Shown here: positions 6,085-58,226 of the stretch, piece by piece
Layout: every line of letters begins with the position of its first letter
How positions within the stretch are numbered: the first letter of the stretch is position 1
Assembly (NCBI RefSeq): GCF_044704955.1
Contig: NC_091977.1
Location: 12,524,001-12,588,000 of the forward strand
DNA: 64,000 nucleotides
Source of the DNA: Pristiophorus japonicus
Lineage: Eukaryota
Reading direction: 5' to 3'
The notes under the pieces: generated by a model
Database searches by the model: none
What the model was told of the DNA's origin: nothing
The model's input: the letters and a program-made list of their open reading frames with translations, nothing else
Translations under genes and position numbers: made by a program

Positions 6085-6184
6085 TTGCAGAGGCTTTCCC
6101 CGTTGCGATATTGTGCATTCCACTCGGAGTGAAACTCCTTGCTCTTTTCGTGATCTGTATCACTTTATACAGAGACAAAACCAG
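6085..6184 (+). CDS. Transmembrane exon of a Siglec-15-like activating Ig receptor (intramembrane Lys)
   Basis: Acceptor tctctctcactttctgttcag| and donor CCAG|gtatgt. The 100-nt phase 1-to-2 exon reads xAEAFPVAILCIPLGVKLLALFVICITLYRDKT(R): a hydrophobic span with a central K followed by basic stop-transfer residues. It resembles the SIGLEC15 GFKALLLL TM motif. Confidence 0.8.
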
Positions 6185-6564
6185 GTATGTAACATTGCTG
6201 GGAGACTCTTACCTTTAAATGGCTGAAGCCCGATTCCTGGGTGAGCCTTGGTCAGTGTGTGTTGGTTGGCAGGAGAGTCAAACACTTGAGCGATCCTAGT
6301 CGAGCCAATGACCACACAGTACATGTCCAGCCGGGATCACTGGATACCAGCAGGAGCAGGAACTCTGCGCAATGTTTCCTCTCCCTGTCCCAGTGGCATT
6401 TAGACCAATTGGTGAGCCCCAGCTGGGAATGGCTGGCAAATTTATATTTTTAAATGTGCGGTGAATCCTATTTAAACAGCCGCTGGTTGTATATGGAGGT
6501 GATGAAAGTGCTCTTATTTTATAGTTCACACAGCTCATTTTAATTGGTCTTGTTTTATCCACAG

Positions 6565-6580
6565 AAAGGAGCAGAACTGA
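6565..6580 (+). CDS. Terminal coding exon (short cytoplasmic tail RKEQN-stop) of the same gene
   Basis: Acceptor tcttgttttatccacag|A AAG GAG CAG AAC TGA. Phase 2 matches the TM exon donor. It is followed by about 500 nt of unique putative 3' UTR. Confidence 0.62.
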
Positions 6581-7083
6581 TCCACCCCAGGAGGCTGAGA
6601 AACCAAATGTACAAACCGCAGTATAAATCTTTTCTGCTCTCCCCGCACTGACTCTCACTCAGCAATTCAAGCTGAATTTGCTTTATTGATCAATTGTTGA
6701 ATGATCCAGATCCTGGCTGCAAAATTCTTCCTGTTAATCAGCTATTCGGCACAGCCCTGCATCACCTTGTCATTTTGAATGGAATCCTCGGAGGATCATT
6801 CCCAATATAAGTCTGTATAAACGCCCAGGCTTTATCTATGATCTGAATAGTGGGAGAGGACATGGGGCAGAGGTGACTGTGAGTACGATAGGTGGGAAAC
6901 GGCAATTATTGCATGTGATTTGCTCAGGGAACTGGCTGCTGTTTCCAACTCCTCGGCTGTGCCGGGAGATTCTGCTGGAGGTCAGCCAGCTTTCAATAGC
7001 TGACCTCAGAGTGAATCTGTGCTTTTACTGTCAGTGTATCAAAGTTAAATGATGGAGCTGCAATGATTGTGAAGAGTGCTCTA

Positions 7084-7089
7084 AATAAA
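7084..7089 (+). terminator. Candidate polyadenylation signal for the + strand receptor gene
   Basis: AATAAA about 500 nt after the stop codon, followed by TG-rich sequence. Confidence 0.4.
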
Positions 7090-8074
7090 CAATTGGTTGT
7101 GTATGAACATGGGCTCCTCCTTAGCATCGACTTGCATTTCATCGAATCTTACAGCACAGGAGGCCATTCGGCCCATTGTGCCTGTGCTGCACCTTTGAAA
7201 GCGCTATCCAATTAGTCCCACTCCCTCTGCTCTTTCTACATTGCCCCGCAACATTTTCACTTTCAAATGTTTCTCCAATTCTCTGTTGAAAGTTACGATT
7301 GAATCTGCTTTCAGGCAGTGCATTCCAGATCACAACTCGCTGCGTTAAATAAACATTCTCATCTTCCTTCTAACTAATTTATTGAAGTATGAAACGGCAT
7401 TATTTGTGTCTGTTAATGTGACAAATTAGAATGAGATTTGTAATATAAAGAATAACCCGTTTCATAGTCCAAAAGTTTTCGGTTTTTAATTGAGTTAAAA
7501 ATGACAAAGGTTAAATGGTAATCTGGTGAAATCCACACAGCAGAGTTTGCAGTTGGCTGGAGTTTGGTGTTTAAATCCACGTTCTTGTTTGTGATTTCTC
7601 AAGGCCTGTTGGTGAGGGAAGGTGCTGTAGACGTGTAGATTGGTGGCCTGCAGACGATGCCAGTGGTTTTCAGCAATGCTGATTGCAGCCAATGTTTTTT
7701 GTACTGGTGGTTGCTCGTTTCTGAGGGCCTTTGGTGTCTGTCTCTGTCCATTATCGAGTAGGCCGGCCATGAAGATTAGAGGCAATGGCAGTCAAAAGCT
7801 GAACTTGCCATGTTGTCTCTCGGACAGGTCACTGCCCTGTTCGATTTCAGTTGGCATCCCTTTCTTGTGGTTTTGTCACAGCTTAACGCTTCCTCTATGT
7901 TCCTCTCAGAAACTCTGTGCTTCCATCGCCAGCAAAAACAATTCAACAACACATTAAATATCACAATGTTGAGGAAATTATCACCAGATTATACAATTAT
8001 CGTAGCCTTGGACTAAAATGTTAGAAATAATTCTTTGACAATCGGCCATTGGTGATTGAGTGGTTCCCACTAAT

Positions 8075-9315
8075 TGTTAAGTATGGAAGAACTCCACCAG
8101 ACTGAGTACTGTGAGCTAAAACTGATGTGACCTTAGTCTCTTTCATACAACTCCAGAGTGCCGAAGCAGCATGACCGACAACCTTTTATACGACCTTACA
8201 CGAGGTGTGCAGTGACCCTTGGGCCTCCAACAGTTGCGCCCTCTGGTGGGAAGTCTTACACAGGTACAATGTTTACATAACTTCACCCCCCCTGCCCCCC
8301 CACCCCCCCCCAAAGTCTTTGATACAAATTATTTACAAGTTGAGACGATCTGGGGCCCTACGCTCCCTGGTTGATCGTCTGAGTTCAAACTCTGGCATGG
8401 GTGAGTTGATCGGACCATTGCTACATTGCAGACGCGGCTGGTCTGACAGGTCTGTTGGGAATGGTGGGTTCATCCTCCTGATTGACAGCGAGGTCGATTG
8501 CTGGTTGGATGTGTGTTGGTGGGTCGATGATGGTGATGTCCTCTTCAGGTTGTTCCTGGTTGTCGGTGAACCGCAGCTTGGTCTGATCCAAGTGCTTTCT
8601 GCACGTTTGTCCATTCAATAGTTTGACTACAAACACTCTATTCCCCTCCTTGGCCAAGACAATGCCAGCAACCAATTTAGGACCATGACCATAATTAAGG
8701 ACAAACACAGGGTCGTTAACATCAATGGCACGCGATACAGCCGCGCAATCGTGGTACATGTCTTGCCGGTGACGCCGGGTTTCCACATGATCATTTTGTT
8801 CCGAATGGACTAGGGAGAGCCTGGTTTTGAGTGCTCTCTTCATTAACAATTCTGCAGGGGGAATCCCAGTGAGCGAGTGGGGTCGCGTCTGGTAGCTGAG
8901 TAGAACCCGAGATAAGCGGATCTGAAAGGAGCTTTCCGTCACGCATGTCAAGCTTTGCTTGATAGTTTGGACTGCCCGTTCCGCTTGACCGTTGGATGCA
9001 GGCTTAAACGGGGAAGACCTGTCATGCTTGATGCCATTGCGGGTCATAAACTCGTTGAATTCCGAGCTGAAACACAGTCCATTGTAACTGACAAGGTCGC
9101 CGGGCAAGCCATGGTTGGCGAACATAGCCCGGAGGCTTTCAATGGTGTCAGTGGATGTGCTGGATGACATGATTACGAATTCAATCCATTTAGAGCAAGC
9201 GTCCACTACAACTAAAAACATCTTTCCGAGAAAGGGGCCAGCAAAATCTACGTGGATTCTGGACCACGGTTTGGAGGGCCATGACCACAGACTCAATGGA
9301 GCCTCCCTTGGTTCA
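8075..9315 (-). mobile_element. Gypsy LTR retrotransposon 3' fragment (integrase, PPT, 3' LTR 8075-8282)
   Basis: ORF 8421..9296 integrase (WSRIHVDFAGP, SNGQAERAVQTIK). The G-rich PPT appears as a C-run at 8286-8311; the LTR ends ...CTTAACA on the minus strand. Confidence 0.9.
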
Positions 9316-9385
9316 TTGCTATCTGGGACCCCAAAGGACCAGTCTACTTAGCTGGACCCAGGCCAACTGTTGACATGTTATTAAC

Positions 9386-11177
9386 CTACATGCTACCTGC
9401 CACCACCTCAGTAAAACCCCAACACTGCACGAGGTAGAAAAAGCCATAAGACAGCTCAAGAACAACAAGGCTATGGGAGCGGATGGAATCCCTGCTGAGG
9501 CACTGAAGTATGGCGGAGAGGCGCTGTTGGCGTGAATACACGACCTCATCCCACTCATCTGGAGGGAGGAGAGCATGCTGGGAGATCTCACAGATGCAGT
9601 GATCGTGACCATCTTTAAAAAAGGGGACAAGCCCGACTGCTGCAACTACAGAGGAATCTCCCCGCTATCAACCACTGGGAAAGTCGTCGCTAGAGTCCTC
9701 CTCAACCGTCTTCTCCCTGTGGGTGAGGAGCTCTTCCCGGAGTCACAGTGTGGATTTCGTACCCTACGGGGCACAACGGACATGATTTTTACAGCGCGAC
9801 AGCTGCAGGAAAAATGCCGGGAACAGCCTTATACATGGCCTTCTTCGACCTTACAAAGGCCTTTGACACTGTCAACCGCGAGGGTCTATGGAGTGTCCTC
9901 CTCTGTTTCGGATGCCCCCAAAAGTTCGTCACCATCCTCCGCCTGCTCCACGATGACATGCAGGCCGTGATCCTTACCAACGGATTCATTACCGACCCAA
10001 TCCACATCCGGACTGGGGTCAAACAGGGCTGCGTCATCGCTCCAACTTTCTTCTCAATCTTCCTCGCTGCCATGCTCCACCTCACAGTCAACAAGCTCCC
10101 CGCTGGAGTGGAACTAAACTACAGAACCAGTGGGAACCTGTTCAACCTTCGTCGTCCCCAGGCCAGGTCCAAGACCACCCCAACCTCTGTCGTCGAGCAC
10201 CTGCGCACAAACAGAGGCTGAACACCAAGTCATAGACAACGTACTTATTGGGGCATACATAAGCATGGACCTTACGCTAAATATCCGTAAGACAAAGGTC
10301 CTCCACCAACCTGTCCCTGCCGGACAGCACTGCCCCCCAATCATTAAGATCATGACATGGCCTTGGTCAACATGGACCATTTCCTATACCCCGGGAGCCT
10401 CCTATCAACAAGAGCAGACATTGACGACGAGATCCAACACCGCCTCCAGTGCGCCTGTGTAGTCTTCGGCCGCCTGAGGAAAAGAGTGTTTAAAGACCAG
10501 GCCCTCAAATCTGGCACCAAGCTCATGGTCTACAGGGCTGTAGTAATACCCGCCCTCCTGTATGGCTCAGAGACATGGACCATGTACAGTAGACACCTCA
10601 AGTCGCTGGAAAAATACTACTAACAATGTCTCCGCAAGATCCTGAAAATCCACTGGGAGGACAGACGCACCAACATTAGCGTCCCCAATAAGGCCAAATC
10701 CCCAGCATTGAAGCACTGACCACACTTGATCAACTCCGCTGGGCAGGCCATATTGTCCGCATGCCAGAAACGAGACTTCCAAACCAACGCTCTACTCGGA
10801 ACTCCTTCACGGCAAATGAGCCAAAGGTGGGCAGAGGAAACGTTACAAGGACACCCTCAAAGCCTCCATGATCAAATGCAACATCCCCACTGACACTGGG
10901 AGTCCCTGGCCAAAGACCGCCCTAAGTGGAGGAAGTGCATCCTGGTGGGTGCCGAGCACCTCGAGTCTCATCACCGAGAGCATGCAGAAACCAAGCGCAG
11001 GCAGCGGAAAGAGCGTGTGGCAAACCTGTCCCATCCACCCTTTTCCACAACGACTATCTGTCACACCTGTGACAGGGTTTGTGGTTCGCGTATTGGACTG
11101 TTCAGCCACTTAAGGAATCATTTTTAGAGTGGAAGCAAGTCTTCCTCGATTCTGAGGGACTGCCTATGATGATGATG
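9386..11177 (+). mobile_element. RTE LINE, 5'-truncated and decayed
   Basis: NYRGIS, FFDLTKAFDTV, GVKQGCVIAP; 3' end GGGACTGCCTATGATGATGATGA. Confidence 0.92.
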
Positions 11178-11526: not shown

Positions 11527-12127
11527 CTAGCCTAACATCTGTGGTTGGGAAAATGTTGGAGTCCATTATTAAAGAAGCAGTAACAGGACATTTGGAAAAA
11601 CATAATTCAGTCAGGCAGAGTCAGCATGGATTTATGAAGGGGAAGTCATGTTTGACAAACTTGCTGGAATTCTTTGAGGATAGAAACATAGAAACATAGA
11701 AAATAGGTGCAGGAGTAGCCCATTCAGCCCTTCTAGCCTGCACCGCCATTCAATGAGTTCATGGCTGTACATGCAACTTCAGTACCCCATTCCTGCTTTC
11801 TCGCCATACCCCTTGATCCCCCTAGTAGTAAGGACTACATCTAACTACTTTTTGAATATATTTAGTGAATTGGCCTCAACAACTTTCTGTGGTAGAGAAT
11901 TCCACAGGTTCACCACTCTCTGGGTGAAGAAGTTTCTCCTCACCTCGATCCTAAATGGCTTACCCCTTATCCTTAGACTGTGATCCCTGGTTCTGGACTT
12001 CCCCAACATTGGGAACATTCTTCCTGCATCTAACCTGTCTAAACCCATCAGAATTTTAAACGTTTCTATGAGATACCCTCTCATTCTTCTGAACTCCAGT
12101 GAATACAAGCCCAGTTGATCCAGTCTC
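11527..12127. mobile_element. CR1 fragments (plus 11527-11680; minus 3' end 11681-12127)
   Basis: QHGFMKGKSC-coding DNA on plus; (ATAGAAAC)n tail and [10 protein letters not shown]...RVVNLWNSLP on minus. Confidence 0.85.
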
Positions 12128-12148
12128 CAGCTGCAGATGGTACCACCT

Positions 12149-14533
12149 GAGTGAGCTCCAAACAGTACCCTGTCTGTCTGATGGTAAGCTCCAGACCGTA
12201 CTCCCTGTCTGTCTGATAGTGAGCTGCAGACAGTACCCTGTCTGTCTGATGGTAAGCTCCAGACCGTACTCCCTGTCTGTCTGATGGTAAGCTCCAGACC
12301 GTACCCCCTGTCTGTCTGATAGTGAGCTCCAAACAGTACCCTGTCTGTCTGATGGTAAGCTCCAGACCATACTCCCTGTCTGTCTGATAGTGAGCTGCAG
12401 ACAGTACCCTGTCTGTCTGATGGTAAGCTCCAGACCGTACTCCCTGTCTGTCTGATGGTAAGCTCCAGACCGTACCCCCTGTCTGTCTGATAGTGAGCTC
12501 CAAACAGTACCCTGTCTGTCTGGTGGTAAGCTCCAGACCGTACTCCCTGTCTGTCTGATAGTGAGCTGCAGACAGTACCCTGTCTGTCTGATAGTGAGCT
12601 GCAGACAATACCCTGTCTGTCTGATAGTGAGCTGCAGACAGTACCCTGTCTGTCTGATAGTGAACTGCAGACAATACCCTGTCTGTCTGATAGTGAGCTG
12701 CAGACAATACCCTGTCTGTCTGATAGTGAGTTGCAGACAATACCCTGTCTGTCTGATAGTGAACTGCAGACAATACCCTGTCTGTCTGATAGTGAGCTGC
12801 AGACAATACCTGTCTGTCTGATAGTGAGTTGCAGACAATACCCTGTCTGTCTGATAGTGAGCTGCAGACAGTACCCTGTCTGTCTGATGGTAAGCTCCAG
12901 ACCGTACTCCCTGTCTGTCTGATGGTAAGCTCCAGACCGTACCCCCTGTCTGTCTGATAGTGAGCTCCAAACAGTACCCTGTCTGTCTGATGGTAAGCTC
13001 CAGACCGTACTCCCTGTCTGTCTGATAGTGAGCTGCAGACAGTACCCTGTCTGTCTGATGGTAAGCTCCAGACCGTACTCCCTGTCTGTCTGATGGTAAG
13101 CTCCAGACCGTACCCCCTGTCTGTCTGATAGTGAGCTCCAAACAGTACCCTGTCTGTCTGGTGGTAAGCTCCAGACCGTACTCCCTGTCTGTCTGATAGT
13201 GAGCTGCAGACAGTACCCTGTCTGTCTGATAGTGAGCTGCAGACAATACCCTGTCTGTCTGATAGTGAGCTGCAGACAGTACCCTGTCTGTCTGATAGTG
13301 AACTGCAGACAATACCCTGTCTGTCTGATAGTGAGCTGCAGACAATACCCTGTCTGTCTGATAGTGAGTTGCAGACAATACCCTGTCTGTCTGATAGTGA
13401 GCTGCAGACAATACTCTGTCTGTCTGATAGTGAGTTGCAGACAGTACCCTGTCTGTCTGATAGTGAGCTGCATACAATACCCTGTCTGTCTGATAGTGAA
13501 CTGCAGACAATACCCTGTCTGTCTGATAGTGAGTTGCAGACAGTACCCTGTCTCTCTGATAGTGAGCTGCGGACAGTATCCCGTCTGTCTGATAGTGAAC
13601 TGCAGACAATACCCTGTCTGTCTGATAGTGAGTTGCAGACAGTACCCTGTCTGACTGATAGTGAGCTGCAGACAGTACCCTGTCTGTCTGATAGTGAGTT
13701 GCAGACAGTACCCTGTCTGTCTGATAGTGAGTTGCAGACAGTACCCTGTCTGACTGATAGTGAGCTGCAGACAGTACCCTGTCTGTCTGATAGTGAGTTG
13801 CAGACAGTACCCTGTCTGTCTGATAGTGAGCTGCAGACAGTACCCTGTCTGTCTGATAGTGAGCTGCAGACAATACCCTGTCTGCCTGATAGTGAGTTGC
13901 AGACAGTAACCTGTCTGTCTGATAGTGAACTGCAGACAGTAACCTGTCTGTCTGATAGTGAACTGCAGACAGTAACCTATCTGTCTGATAGTGAGTTGCA
14001 GACAGTACCCTGTCTGTCTGATAGTGAGTTGCAGACAGTACCCTGTCTGACTGATAGTGAGCTGCACACAGTACCCTGTCTGTCTGATAGTGAGTTGCAG
14101 ACAGTACCCTGTCTGTCTGATAGTGAGCTGCAGACAGTACCCTGTCTGTCTGATAGTGAGTTGCAGACAGTACCCAGTCTGTCTGATAGTGAGCTGCGGA
14201 CAGTATCCTGTCTGTCTGACAGTGAGTTGCAGACAGTACCCTGTCTGTCTGATAGTGAGTTGCAGACAGTACCCTGTCTGTCTGATAGTGAGCTGCGGAC
14301 AGTATCCTGTCTGTCTGACAGTGAGTTGCAGACAGTACCCTGTCTGTCTGATAGTGAGTTGCAGACAGTACCCTGTCTGTCTGATAGTGAGTTGCAGACA
14401 GTACCCTGTCTGTCTGATAGTGAGTTGCAGACAGTACCCTGTCTGTCTGATAGTGAGTTGCAGACAGTACCCTGTCTGTCTGATAGTGAGCTGCAGACAG
14501 TATCCTGTCTGTCTGACAGTGAGTTGCAGTCAG
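12149..14533. repeat. Minisatellite of 33-bp units (GATAGTGAGCTGCAGACAGTACCCTGTCTGTCT) with 35-bp variants and a 171-bp higher-order repeat in its left half
   Basis: The tandem array is directly visible. Marker GTGAGCTCCAAAC occurs at 12151, 12322, 12493, 12960 and 13131. Confidence 0.97.
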
Positions 14534-17500
14534 TGGTGGAGACCGGGGGTTTCCTGTCCTGGTGGTTGGGCCCAGTATAAAAGGCTGCACACCATACTTG
14601 TGCAGCACTCTGGAGTTTGGAATAAAGGACCGAGGTCACTACAGTTCAAGTACAACATATTGCCTCGTGGAGTCATTCATAAGTACACTATAGACATAAC
14701 AGCTGGCGATGAGAATAAGGACTTTCATGCGATCATGGCTACCTTTAACACACTAAAAGAATATGCAGAGGGTGATGATTGGGATGCCTTCACGGAAAGG
14801 CTCGAACAATATTTCGTGGCAAACGACCTGGCAGGGGAGACGGACACATTGGAGGAGAAACGCAAGGCTATACTGCTGACCAGTTGTGGGCCCGAGGACT
14901 ACCGCCTCATCAGTGACTTGCTGACACCCACGAAGGCCAAGGATGAGACATACGATGAGCTGACTGAACTAATTGGCGACCAAATTAAACCAAAGGAGAG
15001 CATCCTCACAGCCAGGCACAGATTCTACACGCACCGCAGACCTGAGGGCCAAGAGACTGCAAAATATGCTGCCGACCTCAGGAGACTTGCGGCACCATGT
15101 GATTTTCGCATGCACCTCAACGAAGCATTGTGAGACATCTTCGTTATAGGAATTGGCCACGAGGGCCTCCTTCACAAGCTATTATCTGCCGACACCACAG
15201 TCAACCTGCAGAAAGCCATCGGCATCAGTCAGGCGTCCATGACCTCGACCTGCAGCACCAAGCAAATCATTCAGCCTGTGGACTCAATCCGGCAAGTACT
15301 GTACACGGAATGGTGCCTTTCACAGGCAAGACTGTAGAATGTGGCTCTGCCCAGGGCAGAGAGCATAGACCTCCGGTTTCCAGAACTCAGAGTCCGCCGA
15401 GGGGTGCTAATCGAGTAGCACCATGCTGGCGTTGCGGAGTACGTATGCAAAGCCTGTAACATGAAGGGCCACCTCCAGCATATGTGTAAAAGAAATACGA
15501 CTCACCGTCTAGCAGAGGAGTCGGTAGATGACTTTGAATCCAGCGGGGAGTATGATGATTTGACCAGAGAGGCAGCTCAGCCCCAAGAAGAAGTGTATGG
15601 AGTGTATAGCTGCACCACCGATTGTCCTCCAGTGAAGATGGAAGTCGAGATAAACGGCATTCCAGTCTTCATGGAAGTGGACACGGGAGCGAGCCAGTCA
15701 GTGATGAGCCAGGATGTCTTCGAGAGGCTGTGGAATGAAAAACGACCCGAGCTGGTTCCAGTACAGGAAAAGTTGTGCACCTACACCAAGGAGCTGATCC
15801 CAGTCCTTGGTAATGCGGACGTAAGTGTAATCCATAATGGCGTGGTGCATAAGTTACCTCTGTGGATTGTTGCAGGTGAGGGTCGAACGCAACTCGGAAG
15901 AAGGTGGATGGGGAAGATCCAGTGGAAATGGGAAGACCTCTTCACTCCAGCAATCGATGTCCCCCGTGCTCACCTTCGCTTGGGCCAGGTACTAGAGAAC
16001 AGACCAGCACAGCACCTGAGGCACAGACCGGCCATCACGACTGTGTGGCAATGATCTGACCAGAACGTCCTAAAAATACTTTCCCAGCTCCAGTGGCAGG
16101 ACTCCTGGGGAGGAATATCAAAATCACAGGTACCCGTCCAGCGTTTGTGGCAGAATCGCGGGAGAGAAGGATCAAGGTAGTCGACCTCGAGGACAGAGGC
16201 AAGATGGCGTTCCTGCTGCAGTGAGGAGCAGCGTGGTTGAAAAAAAAGATGGTCGTGGCAATATCATGAGGTGCAACGCTGAGGGACCAAAATGTGGGGT
16301 CCAACAAAGGATTTGATTGGGGTAAAGCCAGCAGGGTTCTCTTAAAGGAGACCTGCAACCTGAACTTAAAGAGACATCGTATATATGGCAATCAATATAA
16401 CGAACCGATTAAGATTGTGAACAGAATGTGTTGCAATATGTCGGTACTGTAATGAACAAAATGTTGTTGTGAGATGTCGGGAATAGAGTGTCCCCTAGAG
16501 CAGCAAGCGAACAAATTCGGGAGGGCAAAGGCGCGGAGGCTGATACCCTGCCCCAGGTCTATCCCACGCTGTAGGCATCCGTTGGCACCATTCGCCACGG
16601 ACCTGGAAACGAAACCGCCGCCAATACGTGCAGTCGGCCGCTGTTGCCCACCCCTCGGGTGGAGATGGTGCAGCCCCCAGACCCAGTCGCTACCTCGGCC
16701 ATGTCTGGGAGCGAAAGGACAGAACCAACGAGTTCCCCAAATGGACCTGGAACAGCCAGGTTCCCAACACTGAGAGAGCAGGCAGAAGACTCTGCAGCCC
16801 TCAAAGGAGGACAGGGAGGCCACACACATCTGTGGCTCTGCCCACCACTAGGCAACGGCCCTGAGTCCTGGCTCAGTGAGCGAACCAAGCCCACCCCGCT
16901 AGCAAGGGACGCAGCGCCACCATCAGGCGACTAGGACCCCGTCTGGTTGCTCTGGAACTAGCGTCCTCGCATACCTGCACTGCTACCTCAGTACTGACCA
17001 TGACTAAACCATGAATGCAATCTACCCAATCCTGCCGCACGACCGTATAACGTAACGAATGTAATTCACTGAACCAAGGTGTCACGATACAAACTGAAAA
17101 TGCTTTTATTTTTCTTCCTTTCTTTGTACTTGCACTGAGTCTGATCCTGTATGTTAATGTAACGGGCCAGCTGTATGATCTCGCTATGGGGGGGAGGTGG
17201 GGGGGGGAGGGGAAATGGATGTATGTAGCCATGGACACACACATGGATCACACCCAGACCTACTGGAACCTCCACTGCATCATCGAACCATCCAAATGTT
17301 GTGGCAAAAGAACTTGGGGGTTAACAGGGAGAGAGCCAAGCCAAAGCACAGCCAAGGTGCAAGGGCTATTGGCACTTAAGTCTGGGGAGAGCTAAGCCAG
17401 AGCACAGAGTGCAAAGGTAATTGGCACAAAGGACTTGGAAGAGAGTGATGTTGTATATGCTGACTATGGATGCACTCTATGTGTAGTCAATGTGAGATTG

Positions 17501-17754
17501 TATAATATGGAGACTTGTTTACCTGATGTACTATCAATAAGGTTCACACCGTGTACATACCTGCTGGCACCACTCGAGGGCGCAACTGGTGGAGACCGGG
17601 GGTTTCCTGTCCTGGTGGCTGGGCCCAGTATAAAAGGCTGCCCACCATGCTTGTACAGCACTCTAGAGTTTGGAATAAAGGACCGAGGTCACTACAGTTC
17701 AAGTACAACATATTGCCTCGTGGAGTCATTCATAAGTACACTATAGACATAACA
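14534..17754 (+). mobile_element. Non-autonomous Gypsy LTR element (gag + protease only) inserted in the minisatellite
   Basis: 5' LTR 14534-14701 (U3 deleted), PBS TGGCGATGAG at 14704, gag (DDWDAFTERLEQYFVANDL, CWRC knuckle), protease (MEVDTGASQS), PPT about 17437 and 3' LTR 17449-17754. Flanks are GTCAG/GACAG. Confidence 0.9.
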
Positions 17755-18075
17755 GACAGTACCCTGTCTGACCAATAGTGAGCTGCAGACAGTACCCTGT
17801 CTGTCTGATAGTGAGCTGCAGACAGTACCCTGTCTGACCAATAGTGAGCTGCAGACAGTACCCTGTCTGTCTGATAGTGAGCTGCAGACAGTACCCTGTC
17901 TGGCCAATAGTGAGCTGCAGACAGTACCCTGTCTGTCTGATAGTGAGCTGCAGACAGTACCCTGTCTGTCTGATAGTGAGCTGCAGACAATACCCTGTCT
18001 GTCTGATAGTGAGCTGCAGACAGTACCCTGTCTGATGGTGAGCTGTCTGATGGTAAGGCCCAGACAGTACCCCCT
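17755..18075. repeat. Right arm of the 33-bp minisatellite
   Basis: The same unit resumes immediately after the 3' LTR. Confidence 0.95.
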
Positions 18076-18149
18076 GGATGTCTAAGTACATACAGTGTAA
18101 GATAAAGAAAAAAAGGAAGGCTTATGACAGATACCGAGGGCTTAATACT

Positions 18150-23500: not shown

Positions 23501-24660
23501 GCCTACTGTCAACAAGGGCAGACATTGACAACAAGGTCCAACACCACCTTCAGTGTGCCAGTGCAGCCTTCAGTCGCCTGAGGAAGAAAGTGTTTGAAGA
23601 CCAGGACCTCAAACCCGGCACCAAGCTCATGGCCTACAGAGCAGTAGTGATACCCGCCCTCCTACATGGCTCAGAGACATGGACCATGTACAGCAGGCAC
23701 CTCAAAACACTGGAGAAGTACCACCAACGCTGCCTCCGCAAGATCCTGCAAATCCATCGGCAGGATAGGCGCACCAACGTCAGTGTCCTCGGTCAGGCCA
23801 ACATCCCCAGCATCGAAGCACTGACCGCCCTCGATTAGCTCCGCTGGGCAGGCCACATTGTCCGCATGCCCGACACGAGGCTCCCAAAACAAGCGCTCTA
23901 CTCGCAGCCCCGACACGGCGAGCGAGCCCCAGGTGGGCAGGAGAAACGCTTCAAGGACTCCTTGAAAAAATGTAACATCCCCACTGACACCTGGGAATCC
24001 TTGGCCCAAGACCGTACAAAATGGAGGAAAAGCATCCGGGAAGGCGCTGAACACCTCGATCTGTTCGCCGAGAGCAAGCTGAAGCTTAAGCGTCGACAGC
24101 GGAAGGTTCGCGCGGAAACCCAGGCTCCCCACCCACCCGTTCCTTCAACCACCGTCTGCCCCACCTGTGACAGAGACTGTCGGTCCCGCATTGGACTCTT
24201 CAATCACCTGAGAACTCATTTTTAGTGTGGAAACAATTCATCCTCGACTCCAAGAGACTGCTTATGATGATAGTTCATGCACCTCTCAGTAATTTCTTTG
24301 CAAATCTGCTCTTCTATCACCTTCCCACTATTTGGTGGCCTATAGAATACACCAAGTAGCATAATAGTTCCTCTATTGTTTCTTAACTCCGACCAAATAG
24401 ATTCTGTCTTTGATTCCTCAAGGACACTCTCTCTTTCTAGCACGGCAATATTTTCCTTAATCAAAACTGCTACACCTCATCCTTTTTTCCTTTCCTATCT
24501 TTCCTGAATACCTTGTCGCCAGGAATATTAAGCATCCAAAGCTCCATTTTTTGAGCCAGGTCTCAGTTATCGCCACAACATCATATTCTCATGTGGCTTT
24601 TTGCGCCTGCAGCTCACCAACATTATTAACCACACTTTGTCTTTACACACATGCACTCCA
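20590..24660 (-). mobile_element. Old CR1 LINE (endonuclease region) split by an RTE insertion
   Basis: Minus-strand peptides LGNSDHSIIRF (20978..21277) and GVFYRPPNS (24222..24464) lie on either side of the RTE. Confidence 0.8.
21455..24271 (+). mobile_element. RTE LINE, near-complete decayed EN-RT ORF
   Basis: EN end (WQHPRSKHWHLLDH, DCWMDH), RT (KAFDTV, LQYADN), C-terminal CPTC..H..H and an (ATG)n tail. Confidence 0.92.
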
Positions 24661-24799: not shown

Positions 24800-25165
24800 A
24801 GGAATCGAATGCAGTACTGAGGGAGTGCTGCACTGTCAGAGATGCCGTATTTCAGATGAGTCGGTAAACCAAGGCCACATCTGCCCTCCTGGTAGATGTA
24901 AAAATCCCACAGCGCTTTCATAAGAAGAGCAGGGGAGTTTTTCCCAGTGTCGTGGGCCAATATTTATCCCTCAACCAACATCACTAAAAAGCACATTATT
25001 TGATCATTTATTTTTGGTCATTGCTGTTTGTGGGAGCTTGCTGTGCGCAATTTTGGTTGTCGTGTTTCCTACATTACCACAGTGAGTACACTACAAAAGT
25101 AATTCATTGGTTGTAAGGCGCTTTGGGACATCCTGAGGTCGTGAAAGGCGCTATATAAATGCAAA
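24800..25165 (+). mobile_element. Deu-domain SINE (SacSINE/AmnSINE-like), 5'-truncated
   Basis: Core ATTGCTGTTTGTGGGAGCTTGCTGTGCGCAA and tail GGCGCTATATAAATGCAA; paralogous to 58463-58915. Confidence 0.75.
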
Positions 25166-42300: not shown

Positions 42301-45010
42301 TTGTGCTTTACACTTACCCCAGTGCTACTCTGCTCTGTTGCCTCCTGCCTTTTGCAGTCTTTCTTGAGGTCCTGTTCATCTGAGCTCTCACCCATTTTAA
42401 CTAGCTCAGAGCCCTCTCCTGGGTTCCGAATACTCCTCACATTGAGGCACAGAGCTTTCAGGCTTGCCTTTTTATTACACTTTGACCCTTTAGAATTTTG
42501 CTGTACAGTGGCCCTTTTTGTTTTTTGCCTCAGGTTTCTCTGCCCTCCACTTTTACTCATCTCCTTTCTGTCTTTTGCTTCTGTCTCCATTTTGTTTCCC
42601 TCTGTCTCCCTGCATTGGTTCCCATCCCCCTGCCATATTAGTTTAACTCCTCCCCAACAGCACTAGCAAACACTCCCCCGAGGACATTGGTTCCGGTCCT
42701 GCCCAGGTGCAGACCATCCGGTTTGTACTGGTCCCACCTCCCCCAGAACCGGTTCCAATGCCCCAGGAATTTGAATCCCTCCCTGCTGCACCACTGCTCA
42801 AGCCACGTATTCACCTGAGCTATCCTGCGATTCCTACTCTGACTAGCACGTGGCACTGGTAGCAATCCCGACATTACTACTTTTGAGGTCCTATGTTTTA
42901 ATTTAGCTCCTAGCTCCTTAAATTCGTCTCGTAGGTCCTTATCCCTTTTTTTAACCTATATCGCTGGTACCAATGTGCACCACGACAACTGGCTGTTCAC
43001 CCTCCCTTTTCAGAATGTCCTGCACCCGCTCCGAGACATCCTTGACGTTTGCACCAGTGAGGCAACATACCATCCTGGAGTCTCGGTTGTGGCCGCAGAA
43101 ATGCCTATCTATTCCCCTTACAATTGACTCCTCTATCACTATCGCTCTCCCACTCTTTTTCCTGCCCTCCTGTGCAGCAGAGCCAGCCACAGTGCCATGA
43201 ACTTGGCTGCTGTTGCCCTCCCCTGATGAGTCATCCCCCTCAACAGTACTCAAAGCGGTGTATCTGTTTTGCAGGGGGATGACCGCAGGAGACCCCTGCA
43301 CTACCTTCCTTGCACTGCTCTTCCTGCTGGTCTTCCATTCCCTATCTGGCTGTGGACCCTTCTCCTGCGGTAAGACCAACTCGCTACACGTGCTACTCAC
43401 GTCATTCTCAGCATCGTGGATGCTCCAGAGTGAATCCACCCTCAGCTCCAATTCCACAACGCGGTCCGTCAGGAGCTGGAGGCGGATACACTTCCTGCAC
43501 ACGTAGTCGTCAGGGACACCGGAAGTGTCCCTGAGTTCCCACATGGTTCAGGAGGAGCATATCATGTGACCGAGCTCTCCTGCCATGACTTAACCCTTAG
43601 ATACACTTAAATTGGCAACAACAATGCTTAAGTTTACTCACTGTTATAGAAAAGAAAAAAGAAAAACTACTCACCAATCACCAGCCAATCACTTACCCCC
43701 TTGGTTGTGACATCACCTTTCTATTTCTTTCAACTTCTTTTTTGCCTTCCCCCTGTAGCTGCACAAGCCACGCCTCTCGCTGAACTCGCGCTGCTCCTGG
43801 TCTCACTGGCCTTTTGTAGGCCCCTCCGATTCCCGGAACTCCCGCCTCTCGCTGAACTCGCGCTGCTCCTGGTCTCACTGGCCTTTTGTAGGCCCCTCCG
43901 ATCCCCGGAACTCCCGCCTCTCGCTGAACTCGCGCTGCTCCTGGTCTCACTGGCCTTTTGTAGGCCCTTCCGATCCCCGGAACTCCCGCCTCTCGCTGAA
44001 CTCGCGCTGCTCCCGGTCTCACTGGCCTTTTGTAGGCCCTTCCGATCCCCGGAACTCCCGCCTCTCGCTGAACTCGCGATGCTCCTGGTCTTACTGGCCT
44101 TTTGTAGGCCCCTCCGATCCCCGGAACTCCCACCTCTCGCTGAACTCGCGCTGCTCCCGGTCTCACTGGCCTTTTGTAGGCCCCTCCGATCCCCGGAATT
44201 CCCAGCTCTCGCTGAACTCGCGCTGCTCCTGGTCTCGCTGGCCTTTTGTAGGCCCCTCCGATCCCCAGAACTCCCGCCTCTCGCCGAACTCGCGCTGCTC
44301 CTGGTCTCGCTGGCCTTTTGTAGGCCCCTCCGATCCCCGGAACTCCCGCCTCTCGCTGAACTCGCGCTGCTCCCGGTCTCACTGGCCTTTTGTAGGCCTC
44401 TCCGATCCCCAGAACTCCCACCTCTCGCCGAACTCGCGCTGCTCCCGGTCTCACTGGCCTTTTGTAGGCCTCTCCGATCCCCGGAACTCCCACCTCTCGC
44501 CGAACTCGCGCTGCTCCTGGTCTCGCTGGCCTTTTGTAGGCCTCTCCGATCCCCAGAACTCCCGCCTCTCGCTGGACTCGTGCTGCTCCCAGTCTCTCTG
44601 GCCTTTTGTAGGCCCCTCCGATCCCCGGAACTCCCGCCTCTCGCCGAACTCGCGCTGCTCCCGGTCTCGCTGGCCTTTTGTAGGCCCCTCCAATCCCCGG
44701 AACTCCCGCCTCTCGCCGGACTCGTGCTGCTCCTGGTCTCGCTGGCCTTTTGTAGGCCTCTCCGATCCCCGGAACTCCCGCCTCTCGCCGGACTCGTGCT
44801 GCTCCTGGTCTTCATGGCCTTTTGTAGGCCTCTCCGATCCCCGGAACTCCCGCCTCTCGCCGAACTCGCACTGCTCCTGGTCTTCATGGCCTTTTGTAGG
44901 CCTCTCCGATCCCCGGAACTCCCGCCTCTCGCCGAACTCGCACTGCTCCTGGTCTTCATGGCCTTTTGTAGGTCTCTCCGATCCCCGGAACTCCCGCCTC
45001 TCGCCGACTC
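39301..45010 (-). mobile_element. Full-length CR1 LINE (5' monomer array, ORF1 zinc finger plus SGNH esterase, ORF2 EN-RT) with disabling mutations
   Basis: ORF1 YVCRKC, VVVHIGTSD, DGLHL (42638-43560); ORF2 ITETW and KFADDTK; (ATAAGAAC)n tail at 39301-39330. Confidence 0.93.
43771..45008 (-). repeat. About 17 tandem 72-bp CpG-rich monomers forming the CR1 5' end
   Basis: Period 72 (43771, 43843, ...). The minus-strand unit contains GGGGCCTACAAAAGGCC. Confidence 0.95.
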
Positions 45011-45405
45011 CTTGTATTTATACAGTACCTTTCATGACCTCAGGACGTCCCAAAGTGCTTTAGAGCCAATGAAGTATTTTTGAAGTAAAAACATAAAATG
45101 CTGGAAATCTCAGCGGGTCAGGCAGCGACTGTGGAGAGAAACAGAGTTAACGTTTCAGGTCGATGACCCTTCGATTCTGGTTCTGTTTTTATTTCAGATT
45201 CCAGCATCCGCAGTATTTTGCTTCAGTACTTTTGAAGTGTAGTTACTATTGTAATGTAGGAAACAAGGCAGCCAATTTGCACACAGCATGATCCTACAAA
45301 CAGCAATGAGATCATTCCTTTTAGTGAAATTGGTTGAGGGATAAATATTGGCCAGGGCACCAGGGAGAATTCCCCTGCTCTTCTTCGAAACAGTTCCGTG
45401 GATTT
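45011..45405 (-). mobile_element. Deu-SINE (minus) interrupted by a short Penelope/MER6-like element at about 45087-45223
   Basis: SINE core in reverse. The insert AAAATGCTGGAAATCTCAGC...CCAGCATCCGCAGTATTTTGCTT is flanked by AGTA(T/C)TTTTGAAGT duplicates; a similar piece lies at 46825-46915. Confidence 0.6.
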
Positions 45406-45558
45406 GATTTTCTATGCAGTGGCAGTGAATGAACCATTATTTACCAAACTATGATTTTTTGCTTGGATAGGGATGGGTTCGCCTGGAATCGGCTTTTATA
45501 TAACTCCTCAGTGCGAAAATCAGAACAAATTGAACAACCAAGTAGGTGCAGAACCACA

Positions 45559-45657
45559 TTTATTACAAAAGTTATCACTATCATCAATTACAAACAATAA
45601 GATCATTTAGCAATATATTTTATGTTAAAACAATTGATAACAAAAGCAAGTAATAGC
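45559..45657 (-). CDS. Candidate terminal exon of the minus-strand Siglec-15-like gene (GYYLLLLSIVLT-stop plus polyA signal)
   Basis: Acceptor tttttctgttacaatag|GC; the phase-1 frame stops at 45620. AATAAA at 45564-45559 is followed by GT/T-rich sequence. Confidence 0.35.
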
Positions 45658-46249
45658 CTATTGTAACAGAAAAATTATTCAATCTGTTCCTGAGCACTTG
45701 GACAAACATGAGCTGATCAGAGAGAGCCAGCATAGATTTGAAATGGTCGTTACAGGTCATTGCATTCCTTGCATTTCTTGAAGGGGACAATTTTGCAGGC
45801 TATGGAGAAATGGCAGGGAAGTGGGACTAATTGGATACCTCCTGCAGAGAGCCAGCACAGGCACGATGGGCCAAATGGCCTCCTTCTCTGCTGACAGGAT
45901 TGGACAGGTTAGATGCAGGAAGAATGTTCCTGATGTTGGGGTCCCAGTCTAAGGATAAGGGGTAAGCCATTTCGGACCAAGATGAGGAGAAACAACTTCT
46001 CTCAGAGAATTGTGAACCTGTGGAATTCTCTACCACAGAAAGTTGTTGAGGCCAGTCGTCAGATATATTCAAAAGGGAGTTCGATGTGGCCCTTATGACC
46101 AAAGGGATTAAGGGGGTATGGAGAGAAAGCAGGAATGGGGTACTGAAGTTGCATGATCAGCCATGATCATATTGAATGGTGGTGCAGGCTCGAAGGGCCG
46201 AATGGCCTACTCCTGCAGCTATTTTCTATGTTTCTATGTTTCTATGTTT

Positions 46250-49305: not shown

Positions 49306-49309
49306 TTTA

Positions 49310-49569: not shown

Positions 49570-52222
49570 TATTATATATGTAAACCAGTAAATACCTTGT
49601 TTAACCCCAAAGGGCTCATCCCCTGGAATCCCAAGGGATTCCACAATCCCTTTGGAGCACCTGTACTTAAGGAGGCCCTCACACTCTGGAGACCTGCAGT
49701 AAAAGACTAAGGTCACACTTTACTTTGAGCTCACAGTATCTAGTCAGACTCTTTATTCATACAGCACAACTGGCGACGAGATACAGATGACGAACCCCAC
49801 AGCGATGATGCAGAGAACAGTGGGCATCCTGGAGAAATTTTCATAGGGAGCTGATTGGGAAACCTTCGTGGAGCGACTCGACCGATACTTCGTGCCAACG
49901 AGCTGGAAGGAGAAGTGAACGCTGCCAAACGAAGGGCGATTCTCCTCACCGTTTGCGGGGCACCAACGTATGGCCTCATGAAAAATCTGCTCGCTCCAGT
50001 GAAACCCACAGAGAAATCGTATGATGATTTGTGCACACTGGTCTGGGAGCATTTGAACCTGAAGGAAAGTGTTCTGATGGTGAGATACCGGTTCTACACG
50101 TGCAAGAGGGCTGAAGGCCAGGAAGTGGCGAGCTCTGTCGCCGAGCTAAGACGCCTTGCAGGACATTGCGAATTTGAAGGACATTTGGAGCACATGCTCA
50201 GGGACCTCTTTTTACTTGGCATTGGCCATGAAGTAATACTTCACAAACTTTTGACTGCAGAGACCCCAACCTTGAGTAAAACCATAGCGATAGCCCACGC
50301 GTTCATCGTCATCAGTGACAATACCAAGCAAATCTCTCAGCACACGAGTGCTGCTACAGGTACTGTGAACAAAGTAATGTTGTTTTTGAATCGTAACGTA
50401 GAGGGCAGGCCTCACATGCCTGCAGCTGCATGTCCGCAGATGTCTCAGAGTCCACCATTAAGGGTGGTGAATGCTAGGCCATTAACACCTTGTTGGCACT
50501 GCGGGGGTGATCATCGTTTCCATTCATGCCGCTTCAAAGGATACGTTTGCAAGGGCTGTGGAACAATGGGACATCTCCAACGTATGTGCAGGCGAGCTGC
50601 AAATCCTGCTAATCCTGCAAACCACCATGTTGCAGAGGAGGACAGATCCTCGGCAGATCACGATGAACCAGAGCCTCAGACCGAGGAGGCAGAGGTATAT
50701 GGGGTGCAAACATTTACTACAAAGTGTCCCCCGATAATGCTGAAGGTTGAATTAAATGGACTCCCGGTGTCAATGGAGCTGGACACGGGCGCAAGCCAGT
50801 CCATTATGAGCAAAGAGACTTTCAATAAATTGTGATGCAGCAAGGCCTCAAGGCAAGTCCTGACTCCCATTCGCACTAAACTGAGAACTTACACAAAGGA
50901 ACTGACTCCCGTAATCAGCAGTGCTACTGTAAAGGTCTCCTACGATGGAGTGGTGCATAAGTTATCACTCTGGGTGGTACCGGGTGATGGCCCCACGCTG
51001 CTTGGCAGGAGCTGGCCGGGGAAGATATGCTGGAACTGGGATGACGCCCGAGTGCTCTCGCCTGTCGCCGAAACTTTGTGTGTCCAAATCCTAAACAAGT
51101 TCCCCTCGCTGTTCGAACCAGGCATCGGGAAGTTCCAAGGATCAAAAGTGCAGATCCACCTAATTCTGGGGGCACGGCCCATCCATCACAAGACGAGAGC
51201 AGTATCGTACATGATGAGAGAGAGGGTGGAGATCGAGTTAGACCGGCTGCAACGAGAGGGCATCATTTCACCGATCGAATTCAACGAGTGGGCCAGTCCG
51301 ATTGTTCCAGTCCTCAAGGGAGACGGCATCGTCAGAATCTGTGGTGATTACAAAGTTACTATCAATCGTTTCACCCTGCAGGATCAATACCCACTACCAA
51401 AGGCGGACGACCTTTTTGCGACGCTGGCAGGAGGAAAGACATTCACGAAGCTGGGCTTGACCTCAGCCTGCATGATGCAGGAGCTGGAAGAATCATCGAA
51501 GGGCCTCACCGCACAAAGATCTCTTCATTTGGGATTTGATCAGCCACGGTGAAGTTGAGATTAATGATCCTGTATTGGTGTTGAACTATGTTCACGGTCC
51601 CAAGTGGCTCCCCGGCACTGTTGTGGCCAAAAAGGAGAGTAGGGTGTTTCGGGTCAAACTTTCAAATGGACTCATCTACAGGAAACACTTGGACCAAACC
51701 AAACTCAGATTCGCGGACTATCCAGAGCAACCCACATTAAACCCCACCTTTTTCGACCCCCCTAACACACACACCAGTGGCAACCAACACAGCAGTTGAC
51801 CACGAAGCAGAACCCATCCACCGCAGCATCCCAGCAGGACTCACCACATCAGGGAGCCCAGCAAGGCCAGCTGCATAGCAGCCCAGCGAGGGCCCAACAA
51901 ATGACTCACCAAAATCAGCAATTGCACCGAGACGATCAACCAGGGAAAGAAAGGCCCCAGATCGATTCACCTTGTAAATAGTTACACTATTGACTTTGGG
52001 GGGCGGAAAGTTGTATTATATATGTAAAACTGTAAATACCTTGTTTAACCAGAGGGCTCATCCCCTGGAGTCCCAAGGGATCCCACAATCCCCTGGGAGC
52101 ACCTGTACTTAAGGAGGCCTCACAGGCTGGAGAGGTACTTTGGAGACCTGCAATAAAAGACTACGGTCACACTTTACTTTGAGCTCACAGTATCTGGTCA
52201 GACTCTTTATTCATACACCACA
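49570..52222 (+). mobile_element. Internally deleted Gypsy LTR retrotransposon with both LTRs and a 5-bp TSD AAGGG
   Basis: LTRs at 49570-49768 and 52014-52222, PBS TGGCGACGAG at 49771, gag with two CCHC knuckles and protease ELDTGA. RT breaks at about 51545 and jumps to the integrase C-terminus. AAGGG at 49565 and 52223. Confidence 0.93.
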
Positions 52223-55300: not shown

Positions 55301-55846
55301 TACGCTGGGTGGCAGTGTGAGCTGTGAGGAGGATGCTAAGAGGCTGCAGGGTGACTTGGATAGGTTAGGTGAGTGGGCAAATGTATGGCAGATGCAGTAT
55401 AATGTGGATAAATGTGAGGTTATCCACTTTGTGGCAAAAACACGAAGGCAGACGATTATCTGAATAGTGACAGAATAGGAAAAAGGGAGGTGCAACGAGA
55501 CCTGGTACATCATGGTACATCAGTCATTGAAAGTTGGCATGCAGGTACAGCTGGCGGTGAAGAAGGCAAATGGCATGTTGGCCTTCATAGTGAGAGGATT
55601 TGAGTATAGGAGCAGGGAGGTCTCACTGCAGTTGTACAGGGCCTTGGTGAGACCACACCTTGAATATTGTGTACAGTTTTGATTTGCTAATCTGAGGAAG
55701 AACATTCTTGCTATTGAGGGAGTGCAGCGAAGATTGACAGACTGATTCCTGGGATGGCAGGACTGACATATGAAGAAAGATTGGATTGACTAGGGGGTTT
55801 ATATTCACTGGAATTTTGAAGAGTGAGAGGGGACCTCATAGAAACA
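52312..55846 (+). mobile_element. Cluster of nested CR1 fragments (mostly plus; short inverted piece at 52312-52475)
   Basis: Repeated RT blocks and 3' tails at about 53512 and 54515. A truncated copy (about 53222-53512) splits the VTSG|VPQG motif of its host. Confidence 0.88.
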
Positions 55847-57562
55847 CGATGCCTTCATGTTGCAGCCTGTCCAGCTCAATTTCCATTTTTTCACGCATCA
55901 TTTCCGTTACCGCCTGTGCTTTGCGGTGGATGGGTTGCGTACTGGGAACCAAATGGATCTGCACTTTCGCATCTGAGAAGCTTCCAATGCCTGGCTCGAA
56001 CAACGTTGGGAACTTGCTCAGAACCTGGGTACATGAGACGTTGTCGATGGACGAAAGCGCTCGGATGTCGTCCTAGTTCCAGCGGATTTTTCCTAGCCAG
56101 CTTCTGCCAAACAATGTGGGACCATCCCCTGGCACAATCCACAACGGGAGTTCGTGTACTGCTCCATCATAGGAGACTTTGACTTCTGCACTGCCAATTA
56201 CAGGGATTAGTTCCTTGGTGTAAGTCCTTAGTTTGGTGTGAATGGGGCTGAGCTTGGGCCTGTGTGCTTTTTTTCCCCACAGCCTGTCGAAGGTCTTTTT
56301 ACTCATTGTGGACTGACTTGCCCCCCTGTCCAGTTCCATAGACACTGGAATTCCATTCAGTTCAACTTTCAACATTATTGGTGGACATTTCGTAGTGAAT
56401 GTGAGTACCCACGTACACCTCTGCCTCCTCGGTACGAGTCTCCAATTCAGCGTGATCCACAGTGGATCGATCTTCCTCTGCAACGTGGTGGTTTGCAGGT
56501 TTTGCAGGGTTTGCAGCTCGTCTGCACATTCGTTGGAGGTGTCCCATTGTTCTGCAACCATTGCACGCATAGTACTTGAAGCGGCATTGATGGGGCCAAT
56601 GATCACCTCAGTAGCGCCAACAAGATGTTAACTGCCTCACATTAACAATTGATGGCGGACTCTGGGTCAACTGAGGTCGGGCCGCAGCAGCCGGCGTGTA
56701 TGTTCTGCCCTGTACATTTCTGCTCGAAACCGATGTTACTCTATGCACAGTACTGGCCGAAACCTCTTTACTCTGTGAAATCTGTTTGGTGTTGTCGCTG
56801 GTGGACATAAATGCCTGGGCTATCGTTATGGCTTTACTTAGATTCGCAGTTTCGACAGTCAACAGTTTGCGAAGGATTGTCTCATGTCCAATGCCCAGTA
56901 CAAAAAAGTCTCTGAGCATTTGTTCTAGGAATCCCTCAAACTCACAACGCCCTGTGAGGCGCCTTAGTTCGACGACATAGCTCACCACTTCCTGGTCCTC
57001 CATTCGTTGACACGTGTAGAACCGATATCTTGCCATCAAAATGCTTTCCTTAGGATTTATGTGCTCCCAACCAGCATACACAATTCTTCATAAGATTTCT
57101 CTGTTGCTTTTGCCGGGGCCAGGAGATTCTTCATGAGGCCATAGGTTGTTGCCCCACAGACAATTAGAAGGATCACCCTTCGTTTGGTAGCAGTTTTGTC
57201 CCCTTCCAGCTCGTTGGCCTCAAAGTATTGGTTGAGTCTCTCCACAAAGGCCTCCCAATCATCCCCTTCTGAGAACTTCTCCAGGATACTGACTGTTCTT
57301 TGCATTTTTGTTCGTTGTTCGTGGTTGTTCGTTACCTCGTCGCCAATTGGTACACTCATAATAAAGGATGAAACTGAGTACTGTGTACAATGAGCAAGTG
57401 TGGCCTTAGCTCCTTTAATAAGACTCCAGAGTGCAGATACCTCGTGGGAGGCCTGCTTATACACTGTGCTCCCAAGGGATGCTGGGATCCCTTGGGACTC
57501 CAACAGGTGGGCCCTCTGGTGGTCAGGTGTCATGCAGGTTACAAAGGGTTAAATACATAACA
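55847..57562 (-). mobile_element. Gypsy LTR retrotransposon 5' part (LTR 57348-57562, PBS, gag, protease), 3'-truncated
   Basis: PBS reverse complement CTCGTCGCCA at 57336-57345; gag MQRTVSILEKFSEGDDWEAF; protease ELDRGASQS. Confidence 0.92.
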
Positions 57563-58102
57563 GTTTTTGTCTCCCAATCTGAGGAAGGACGTGCTTGCTA
57601 TTGAGGGAGTGCATTGAAGGTTCACCAGACTAATTCCCGGGATGGCAGGGCTGACATATGAAGAAAGACTGGATCGGCTAGGGTTATACTCACTGGAATT
57701 TAGAAGAATGAGAGGGGATCTCATAGAAACATATAAAATTATGACGGGACTGGACAGGTTAGATACAGGAAGAATGTTCCCGATGTTGGTGAAGTCCAGA
57801 ACCAGGGGTCACAGTCTAAGGATAAGGGGTAAGCCATATAGGACCGAGAGAAGGAGAAACCTCTTCACCCAGAGAGTGGTGAACCTGTGGAATTCTCTAC
57901 CACAGAAAATTGTTGAGTCCAGTTTGTTGGATATATTCAAGAGGGAGTTGGATGTGGCCCTTATGGCTAAGGGGATCGGGGGCATGGAGAGAAGGCAGGA
58001 GTGGGCTACTGAAGTTGCATGTTCAGCCATGATCATATTGAAAGGCGGTGCAGGCTTGAAGGGCCGAATGGCCGACTCCTGCACCTATTTTTTATGTTTC
58101 TA
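57563..58102 (+). mobile_element. CR1 LINE 3' fragment
   Basis: ORF 57642..58142 [17 protein letters not shown]; tail TATGTTTCTAT. Confidence 0.9.
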
Positions 58103-58174
58103 TTTGACAACACTGACAGAAAGCAAAGTTAGTGAAACATAAGTTGCTAAAATTGTTCTTTCAAATGTGCTCAC

Positions 58175-58226
58175 AGTTCCGCACTGATACCGTCAGTAAA
58201 AGAAGGTAAATGAGAGAATGTGCCAT
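58175..58226 (-). CDS. Signal-peptide exon of the minus-strand Siglec-15-like gene
   Basis: ggcATGG start; MAHSLIYLLLLTVSVRN plus T|gtgagc (52 nt, phase 1). It splices in frame to the V exon to give MAHSLIYLLLLTVSVRNCSSEWSM, and lies in a unique island among repeats. Confidence 0.72.

Follow-up and report, generated by a model that had tools for sequence, protein, structure and literature searches.

Paired receptors are known among the CD33-related Siglecs, Siglec-5 and Siglec-14 being one such pair. In another, Siglec-11/16, near-identical ectodomains are carried on activating and inhibitory ends and non-functional copies are frequent (PMC5701461). Siglec-15 is described as activating and as one of four conserved fish Siglecs (PMC7226832); a lysine in its membrane segment couples it to the adaptors DAP10 and DAP12, and Arg143 is needed for its binding of sialic acid (PMC7226832, PMC10264397). 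In the available portion of PMC7226832 the word 'shark' does not occur. A further multigene immunoglobulin (Ig) family of cartilaginous fishes, modular in its domains and likewise comprising activators and inhibitors, is that of the skate MDIRs, which PMC3031540 describes as CD300/TREM/pIgR-like. Here we analyse a 64,000-nucleotide stretch of Pristiophorus japonicus DNA (contig C1, positions 12524001-12588000; hereafter the window) that holds exons of two Siglec-15-like genes facing each other, and the 2 Mb cluster on C1 in which they lie. A literature search restricted to material outside supplementary files found no published description of this cluster, although Supplementary file 9 of the whale-shark paper may list such families, and the surrounding family is already partly auto-annotated.

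An initial annotation of the window had placed leader and V exons on the minus strand (58226 to 46958) and transmembrane (TM) and tail exons on the plus strand (6085 to 6580), and had left the choice between two genes and a single gene in two pieces, a separate plus-strand leader and V upstream being the mark of the former. Both sets of exons are confirmed (Table 1), and a separate plus-strand leader, V1 and V2 do lie upstream of the window. We hold it very probable that two separate genes of a tandem cluster face each other here, a complete and likely activating gene on the plus strand and a likely non-functional copy, belonging to what we call subfamily A, on the minus strand. The leader, V1, V2, TM and tail of the plus gene, which belongs to subfamily B, join into a single open frame of 306 amino acids ending in KTRKEQN, with GT/AG at each junction, and the layout is leader-V-V-TM(Lys)-KEQN without a C2 exon. 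The minus strand carries a complete paralogue at C1 12.92 Mb, with which the V1-V2-TM span of the plus gene is collinear in blocks of 88-98%. Spliced joints on that paralogue are found in contigs from three sequencing runs of one study (kind of run, RNA or other, unrecorded; shares 0.26-0.38), V2-TM and TM-tail in the contigs of all three and V1-V2 in those of two, all of them GT-AG. The V-V-TM-tail order in these contigs therefore indicates that subfamily B has no C2 exon.

Table 1. Exons of the two facing genes and the DNA between them. Positions are those of the window unless given for C1.
Feature	Position	Strand	Description
Leader exon, minus gene	58226-58175	-	MAHSLIYLLLLTVSVRN; ATG intact, donor GTGAGC intact
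V1 exon, minus gene	47343-46958	-	386 nt, where both paralogues have 387; the lost base falls between 47015 and 47014
V2 remnant, minus gene	46623-46581	-	43 nt; 3' end and donor of second V exon
Intergenic DNA	6627-46580	.	Repeat-rich; collinear intron blocks of minus gene, without TM exon or C2 exon
TM exon, plus gene	6085-6184	+	100 nt, phase 1 to 2; AEAFPVAILCIPLGVKLLALFVICITLYRDKT; one Lys in membrane segment
Last coding exon, plus gene	6565-6626	+	After TM exon reads (R)KEQN-stop, stop 6578-6580; tail 6565-6580
Leader, plus gene	C1 12490710	+	33 kb upstream of window; by tblastn
V1 exon, plus gene	C1 12516447-12516839	+	7.5 kb upstream of window start
V2 exon, plus gene	C1 12517677-12518027	+	6.3 kb upstream of window start

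Three points weigh against so full a reading of the plus gene. The run contigs fit a sister copy at every listed variant site (8 of 8 in V1, 5 of 5 in V2 and 8 of 8 in the tail; 21 listed sites used), while the window gene fits them at only 1 of 8, 3 of 5 and 5 of 8 of the listed sites respectively, so that the splice order is shown for subfamily B and not expression of the window copy. The leader is as much as 25.7 kb away from V1, and its assignment depends on position and homology. A DAP10 profile matched 0 of 84 candidates, which is no evidence either way; DAP12 was not searched for, and no adaptor was located.

The lysine in the TM segment suggests, by analogy with Siglec-15, that the plus gene likely encodes an activating receptor working with a DAP12-type adaptor: its product would pair through this lysine with an adaptor carrying a tyrosine-based activation motif of immunoreceptors (ITAM), of the DAP12 type as in Siglec-15. 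The best match of its V1 in the PDB is Siglec-15 (7ZOZ); pIgR follows at E 9e-8, and neither CD300 nor TREM is among the chains listed. Where Siglec-15 has the sialic-acid-binding Arg143 this V1 has Gly (YWCGVE), and with the essential Arg replaced the product probably lacks Siglec-type binding of host sialic acid. The last exon also has a second usable frame, in which skipping of the TM exon gives a 20-residue end, ERSRTDPPQEAEKPNVQTAV-stop, reaching 6626. This end nearly equals the C-terminus of a TM-less RefSeq model from Heptranchias (XP_067838211.1), and a conserved soluble isoform made by TM skipping is possible; no such joint was seen among the run-contig joints listed.

The alternative in the initial annotation, that a repeat-mediated inversion or a misassembly had divided a single gene, draws on the complementary exon types in the window, on the high-copy character of the DNA between the exon sets (69% of 6581-46570 has at least 10 matches in the DNA examined), on three gaps of the C1 scaffold within the cluster and on internal duplications in a further contig, C4015. 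It is refuted by the TM exon at 6085, which has its own leader, V1 and V2 upstream, and we give it hardly any credence: the minus V is a subfamily-A domain, and the TM exon of A is a different, neutral one; the minus gene's collinear intron blocks can be followed on its own strand as far as about 25000; and contig C4093 repeats the same arrangement. The reported lack of a C2 exon and of a convincing minus-strand TM exon in the window is borne out: tblastn with the two C2+TM exons of the cluster and the subfamily-A TM gave a best E of 0.18, and a six-frame Ig motif scan found the minus V to be the sole credible Ig domain. The missing C2 exon needs no explanation, because subfamilies A and B are both V-V-TM. 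Conserved minus-strand blocks at 45170-45900, 33380-34260, 30600-31320 and 25000-26000 gave no convincing exon.

Two separate genes being thus the preferred reading, the condition of the minus gene is the next matter. Its V1 is a clear V-set domain (Pfam match of 35.1 bits against a cut-off of 26) with human Siglec-15 as best PDB match at E 9.5e-18, the next at 2.1e-6. The subfamily-A layout, taken from the paralogues at C1 13.02 and 13.29 Mb, is leader-V1-V2-neutral TM, and the window copy departs from it by three lesions. Relative to both paralogues one nucleotide is deleted from V1 just past the YFCRVE codons, leading to a stop at 46963-46961; about 1.37 kb is deleted by comparison with the 13.02 Mb paralogue, with 43 nt of V2 surviving; and the TM exon is gone, the homology jumping by about 31 kb in paralogue coordinates. 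The neutral subfamily-A TM exon has two matches genome-wide (2 of 2 candidates), neither in the window, and a search for subfamily-A cytoplasmic exons gave no convincing candidate. From the frameshift, the V2 deletion and the missing TM exon, the minus gene is likely a decaying pseudogene. Of the initial suggestion of a membrane activator beside a truncated or soluble paralogue, the separate plus gene and its likely activating nature thus stand, and the working soluble form does not, in view of the three lesions.

A secreted single-V decoy of about 144 amino acids, with a substitute G strand and the essential Arg kept, would be another use of the same exons, and we judge it highly unlikely. 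Leader, acceptor and donor are intact, a signal of AATAAA/ATTAAA type lies at 46651, AlphaFold sets the shifted tail (residues 118-125) as a strand, and the frameshift is common to C1 and C4093, all of which would suit a decoy. The predicted local distance difference test (pLDDT) values of that tail, however, are 62 and 55, where the intact paralogue reaches 85 and 96, and the model of the frameshifted V has no A' strand. The F-strand Arg is kept, but the equivalent of Tyr87 has become Cys, an extra cysteine is gained, and changes private to this V copy also strike two near-invariant residues; the private codon changes number 13, and 12 of them are non-synonymous, a share near the neutral site ratio of 261:66. 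In a third copy of the region the V exon is deleted altogether.

The other copies of the region are found on two further contigs. C4093 is collinear with the window at 98.8-98.9%; its two genes face as they do in the window, and its V exon is identical to the window's, frameshift included. On C4015 the whole minus-strand V exon has been lost at a short direct repeat; positions 152812-152820 and 202431-202494 of that contig belong to a third version of the window region, with internal duplications. The versions on C1, C4093 and C4015 differ by 0.7-0.9%, and at this divergence the frameshift is unlikely to be a base-calling error. The three contigs represent at least two loci, or else an assembly artefact, and some of them may be assembly artefacts or tandem duplicates.

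Nor are the two window genes a convergent receptor pair, as had been proposed. Their V1 domains belong to different subfamilies and share 41 of 109 residues, and because of this they are not a matched pair such as those of the CD33-related Siglecs. A facing orientation is no rarity in the cluster: C1 carries 11 N-terminal V exons, of which the plus strand has 5 and the minus strand 6. The arrangement that had been flagged is a window-edge effect together with a likely pseudogene, a complete gene facing a likely dead paralogue, as is ordinary in a birth-and-death cluster. The facing orientation would be a by-product of inverted duplications, and the cluster as a whole likely evolves by birth and death, with ectodomains and signalling ends being exchanged. 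The cluster, and not the flagged arrangement, is the point of interest.

In C1 we examined 11.175-11.330 Mb and 12.324-13.388 Mb, together with parts of C4093 and C4015; the interval 11.33-12.32 Mb gave no match in the genome homology searches, and its DNA was not itself inspected. The earlier suggestion of an expanded cartilaginous-fish Siglec-15-like cluster is supported by the 11 N-terminal V exons on C1, of which 3 are of subfamily A, 5 of B, 2 of C and 1 of D. The TM exons of A, C and D were identified by comparison of paralogues after a strict TM-exon scan had missed them, and the subfamily-B leader was located by tblastn after a hydrophobicity-based leader scan had missed it. Subfamily C is V-V-C2-TM; its C2 exons, with a DNA identity of 99.6%, nevertheless terminate in TMs of two kinds, Lys and neutral. 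Subfamily D is V-C2-TM with a neutral TM. In subfamily B the Lys TM exon has five matches in the genome (5 of 5 candidates, one with an internal deletion), and at C1 11.21-11.24 Mb B also occurs in a neutral-TM form, in which exons that bear tyrosines come after the TM. Similar ectodomains on charged and on neutral TMs are thus found in subfamilies B and C. The window plus gene shares 103 of 130 V1 residues and 105 of 116 V2 residues with the neutral-TM B gene at C1 11.21 Mb, and would be the activating counterpart of such neutral-TM, tyrosine-tailed subfamily-B genes, this one lying 1.3 Mb away. The ratio of non-synonymous to synonymous differences (pN/pS) among B paralogues is near 1, which is uninformative, the window V1 having been left out for its length. 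The F-strand Arg is kept in 7 of 12 aligned V1 exons, namely the broken minus V and six others.

Compared with human Siglec-15 (PDB 7ZOZ), the cluster shares the N-terminal V with its C'-C'' cysteine pair, the cysteines of this second pair (C95-C104), a putative bond here, both aligning in V1 of both window genes. The equivalents of Trp44, Tyr87 and Arg143 are kept in the intact A paralogue, the Lys TM is shared with the activating members of B and C, and the V-C2-TM layout with subfamily D. In other respects the two differ: the cluster is multi-copy, A and B are V-V-TM without C2 and C is V-V-C2-TM, neutral-TM members have tyrosine tails, the Lys TM is absent from A and D with their neutral TM, the sole intact V-C2 member (of D) is without Lys, and the plus gene has Gly for Arg143. 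Judged by these features, the window genes are Siglec-15-like and not Siglec-15. With the CD33-related pairs the cluster has in common near-identical ectodomains on two kinds of signalling end and many damaged copies; it is distinguished from them by V domains of Siglec-15 type (CD33 is matched only at E 2e-3 and 3e-4) and by its tandem V domains. The MDIRs are set apart by their description, not by sequence: the V1 domains of the window match Siglec-15 much more closely, and the matches listed include neither CD300 nor TREM chains.

It is nevertheless conceivable that the likeness to Siglec-15 is one of fold alone, the family being a chondrichthyan Ig receptor family apart (MDIR-like, for example), not derived from SIGLEC15 and mostly without sialic-acid binding. 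The SLC14A urea transporter and ATP5F1A are neighbours of SIGLEC15 in human; both markers (2 of 2) are on contig C2 with the cluster on C1, so there is no linkage. The Arg is absent from the V2 domains, which match Siglec-15 and TIM-2 alike; the automatic name of one relative is pIgR-like; and a quick unrooted tree leaves the deep branches unsplit. We consider this origin unlikely: Siglec-15 is the best match of the V1 domains by 9-11 orders of E-value, the model of the intact A V1 has a TM-score of 0.89 to Siglec-15 at 37% identity with the next structure at 0.77 or less, and the Lys TM is of Siglec-15 type. With frog Siglec-15 as query, 92 of 92 candidates were scored and 35 matches obtained, of which 29 fall within the cluster or in one of its two unplaced copies, while C2 has none.

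Relatives in other species are widespread. A HMMER profile search of a protein library gave 1361 matches at E 0.001, and among the best 150 of these at least 10 chondrichthyan genera are represented, mostly by proteins called 'uncharacterized'. The 20 named chondrichthyan proteins that we classified comprise 5 with a Lys TM, whose tails of 5-19 amino acids have no immunoreceptor tyrosine-based inhibitory motif (ITIM), 12 with a neutral TM (8 with a canonical ITIM) and 3 with no TM. A quick, unrooted IQ-TREE analysis (79 rows by 131 columns) places chondrichthyan relatives together with subfamilies B, C and D at support values of 99, 90 and 99, and C and D include Callorhinchus; subfamily A is without an orthologue among the sampled proteins, and the deep forks are not settled by this tree. 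By tree and exon layout the RefSeq/UniRef models of chondrichthyans (e.g. XP_067838506.1, XP_078071345.1, XP_041041398.1) belong to the same subfamilies B, C and D, although they carry automatic names only ('uncharacterized', 'Siglec-15', 'Siglec-12', 'pIgR-like'). A word-index search for longer homologues found none for the minus-strand V1 (0 of 16 candidates) or for the subfamily-A V2 (0 of 49).

With these relatives in view we lean, if cautiously, towards a broader proposal, that cartilaginous fishes made the Siglec-15 lineage, represented in mammals by one conserved activating gene, into a paired-receptor system of their own. In its full form this would comprise four tandem-V subfamilies with swappable Lys and ITIM ends, of an age that makes them common to sharks, rays and chimaeras. 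A Siglec-15 of the classic V-C2-TM(Lys) kind would be absent from this genome, Arg-less activators such as the window plus gene would sense other, probably microbial, ligands, and TM skipping would add soluble forms by way of the second frame of the last exon. The inhibitory side is less complete in this genome: within the regions examined no intact gene with a canonical ITIM could be completed, the neutral-TM B candidate showing CTYAEI and CTYASI exons with its last exon not found, and the C copy with a VNYSVV exon being damaged by truncation of V1 and by a stop in the leader, while an inhibitory role of subfamily A would be read from its neutral TM alone, its tail exons not having been identified. 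If a paired family did derive from Siglec-15, then either pairing arose separately on another Siglec branch or mammals kept a remnant of a larger ancestral family, and the cluster offers testable versions, with and without the Arg and with Lys or ITIM ends, on near-identical ectodomains. Tandem-V or neutral-TM Siglec-15-like proteins were also seen in salamander, lungfish and eel among the profile matches listed, and the expansion, as far as such sequences tell, may not be confined to cartilaginous fishes.

Several other loci of the cluster deserve mention. At C1 13294600-13294990 lies an intact A V1 that is the best match in the genome to frog Siglec-15, retaining the Trp44, Tyr87 and Arg143 equivalents and followed by a neutral TM; on these features the gene is the best candidate for a sialic-acid-binding, non-activating member. 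A single V-C2-TM gene at C1 12723979-12735515 has the Arg and no TM Lys, and falls together with Carcharodon and Callorhinchus proteins that bear the name Siglec-15 and are likewise without the Lys; a second, damaged C2+TM exon is present at C1 13.195 Mb. At C1 12964847-12965830 a plus-strand C-type V2 fragment adjoins its C2+TM exon on the minus strand; 110-150 kb away, at 13075085-13114552, the plus strand carries a C-type leader along with tail exons. Unlike the flagged arrangement, these C-type loci are a real local rearrangement of one gene. Damaged copies include an A paralogue at C1 13012939-13013048 (leader donor GT changed to TT, Arg lost) and two B copies, one at 12459612-12480690 with a frameshifted leader and a stop in V2, the other at 12396465-12406033 with a truncated V2 and a TM exon without the Lys segment. 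Weaker V-set matches to the frog Siglec-15 query (E 3e-5 to 9e-4), at C22 60.1-60.5 Mb and C4 25-54 Mb, are probably other Siglec-type genes.

The remainder of the window is rich in repeats. Broken frames that we take, from motifs in their translations, to be like those of long terminal repeat retrotransposons and long interspersed nuclear elements occur at 1-2900, 8424-9347, 14650-16050, 49855-51549 and 55800-57550, and at 3175-5133, 9500-11120 and 21500-24220. Tandem arrays at 11850-14600, 17700-18080 and 43760-45060 contain long repetitive open frames with units of about 10 and 21 residues.

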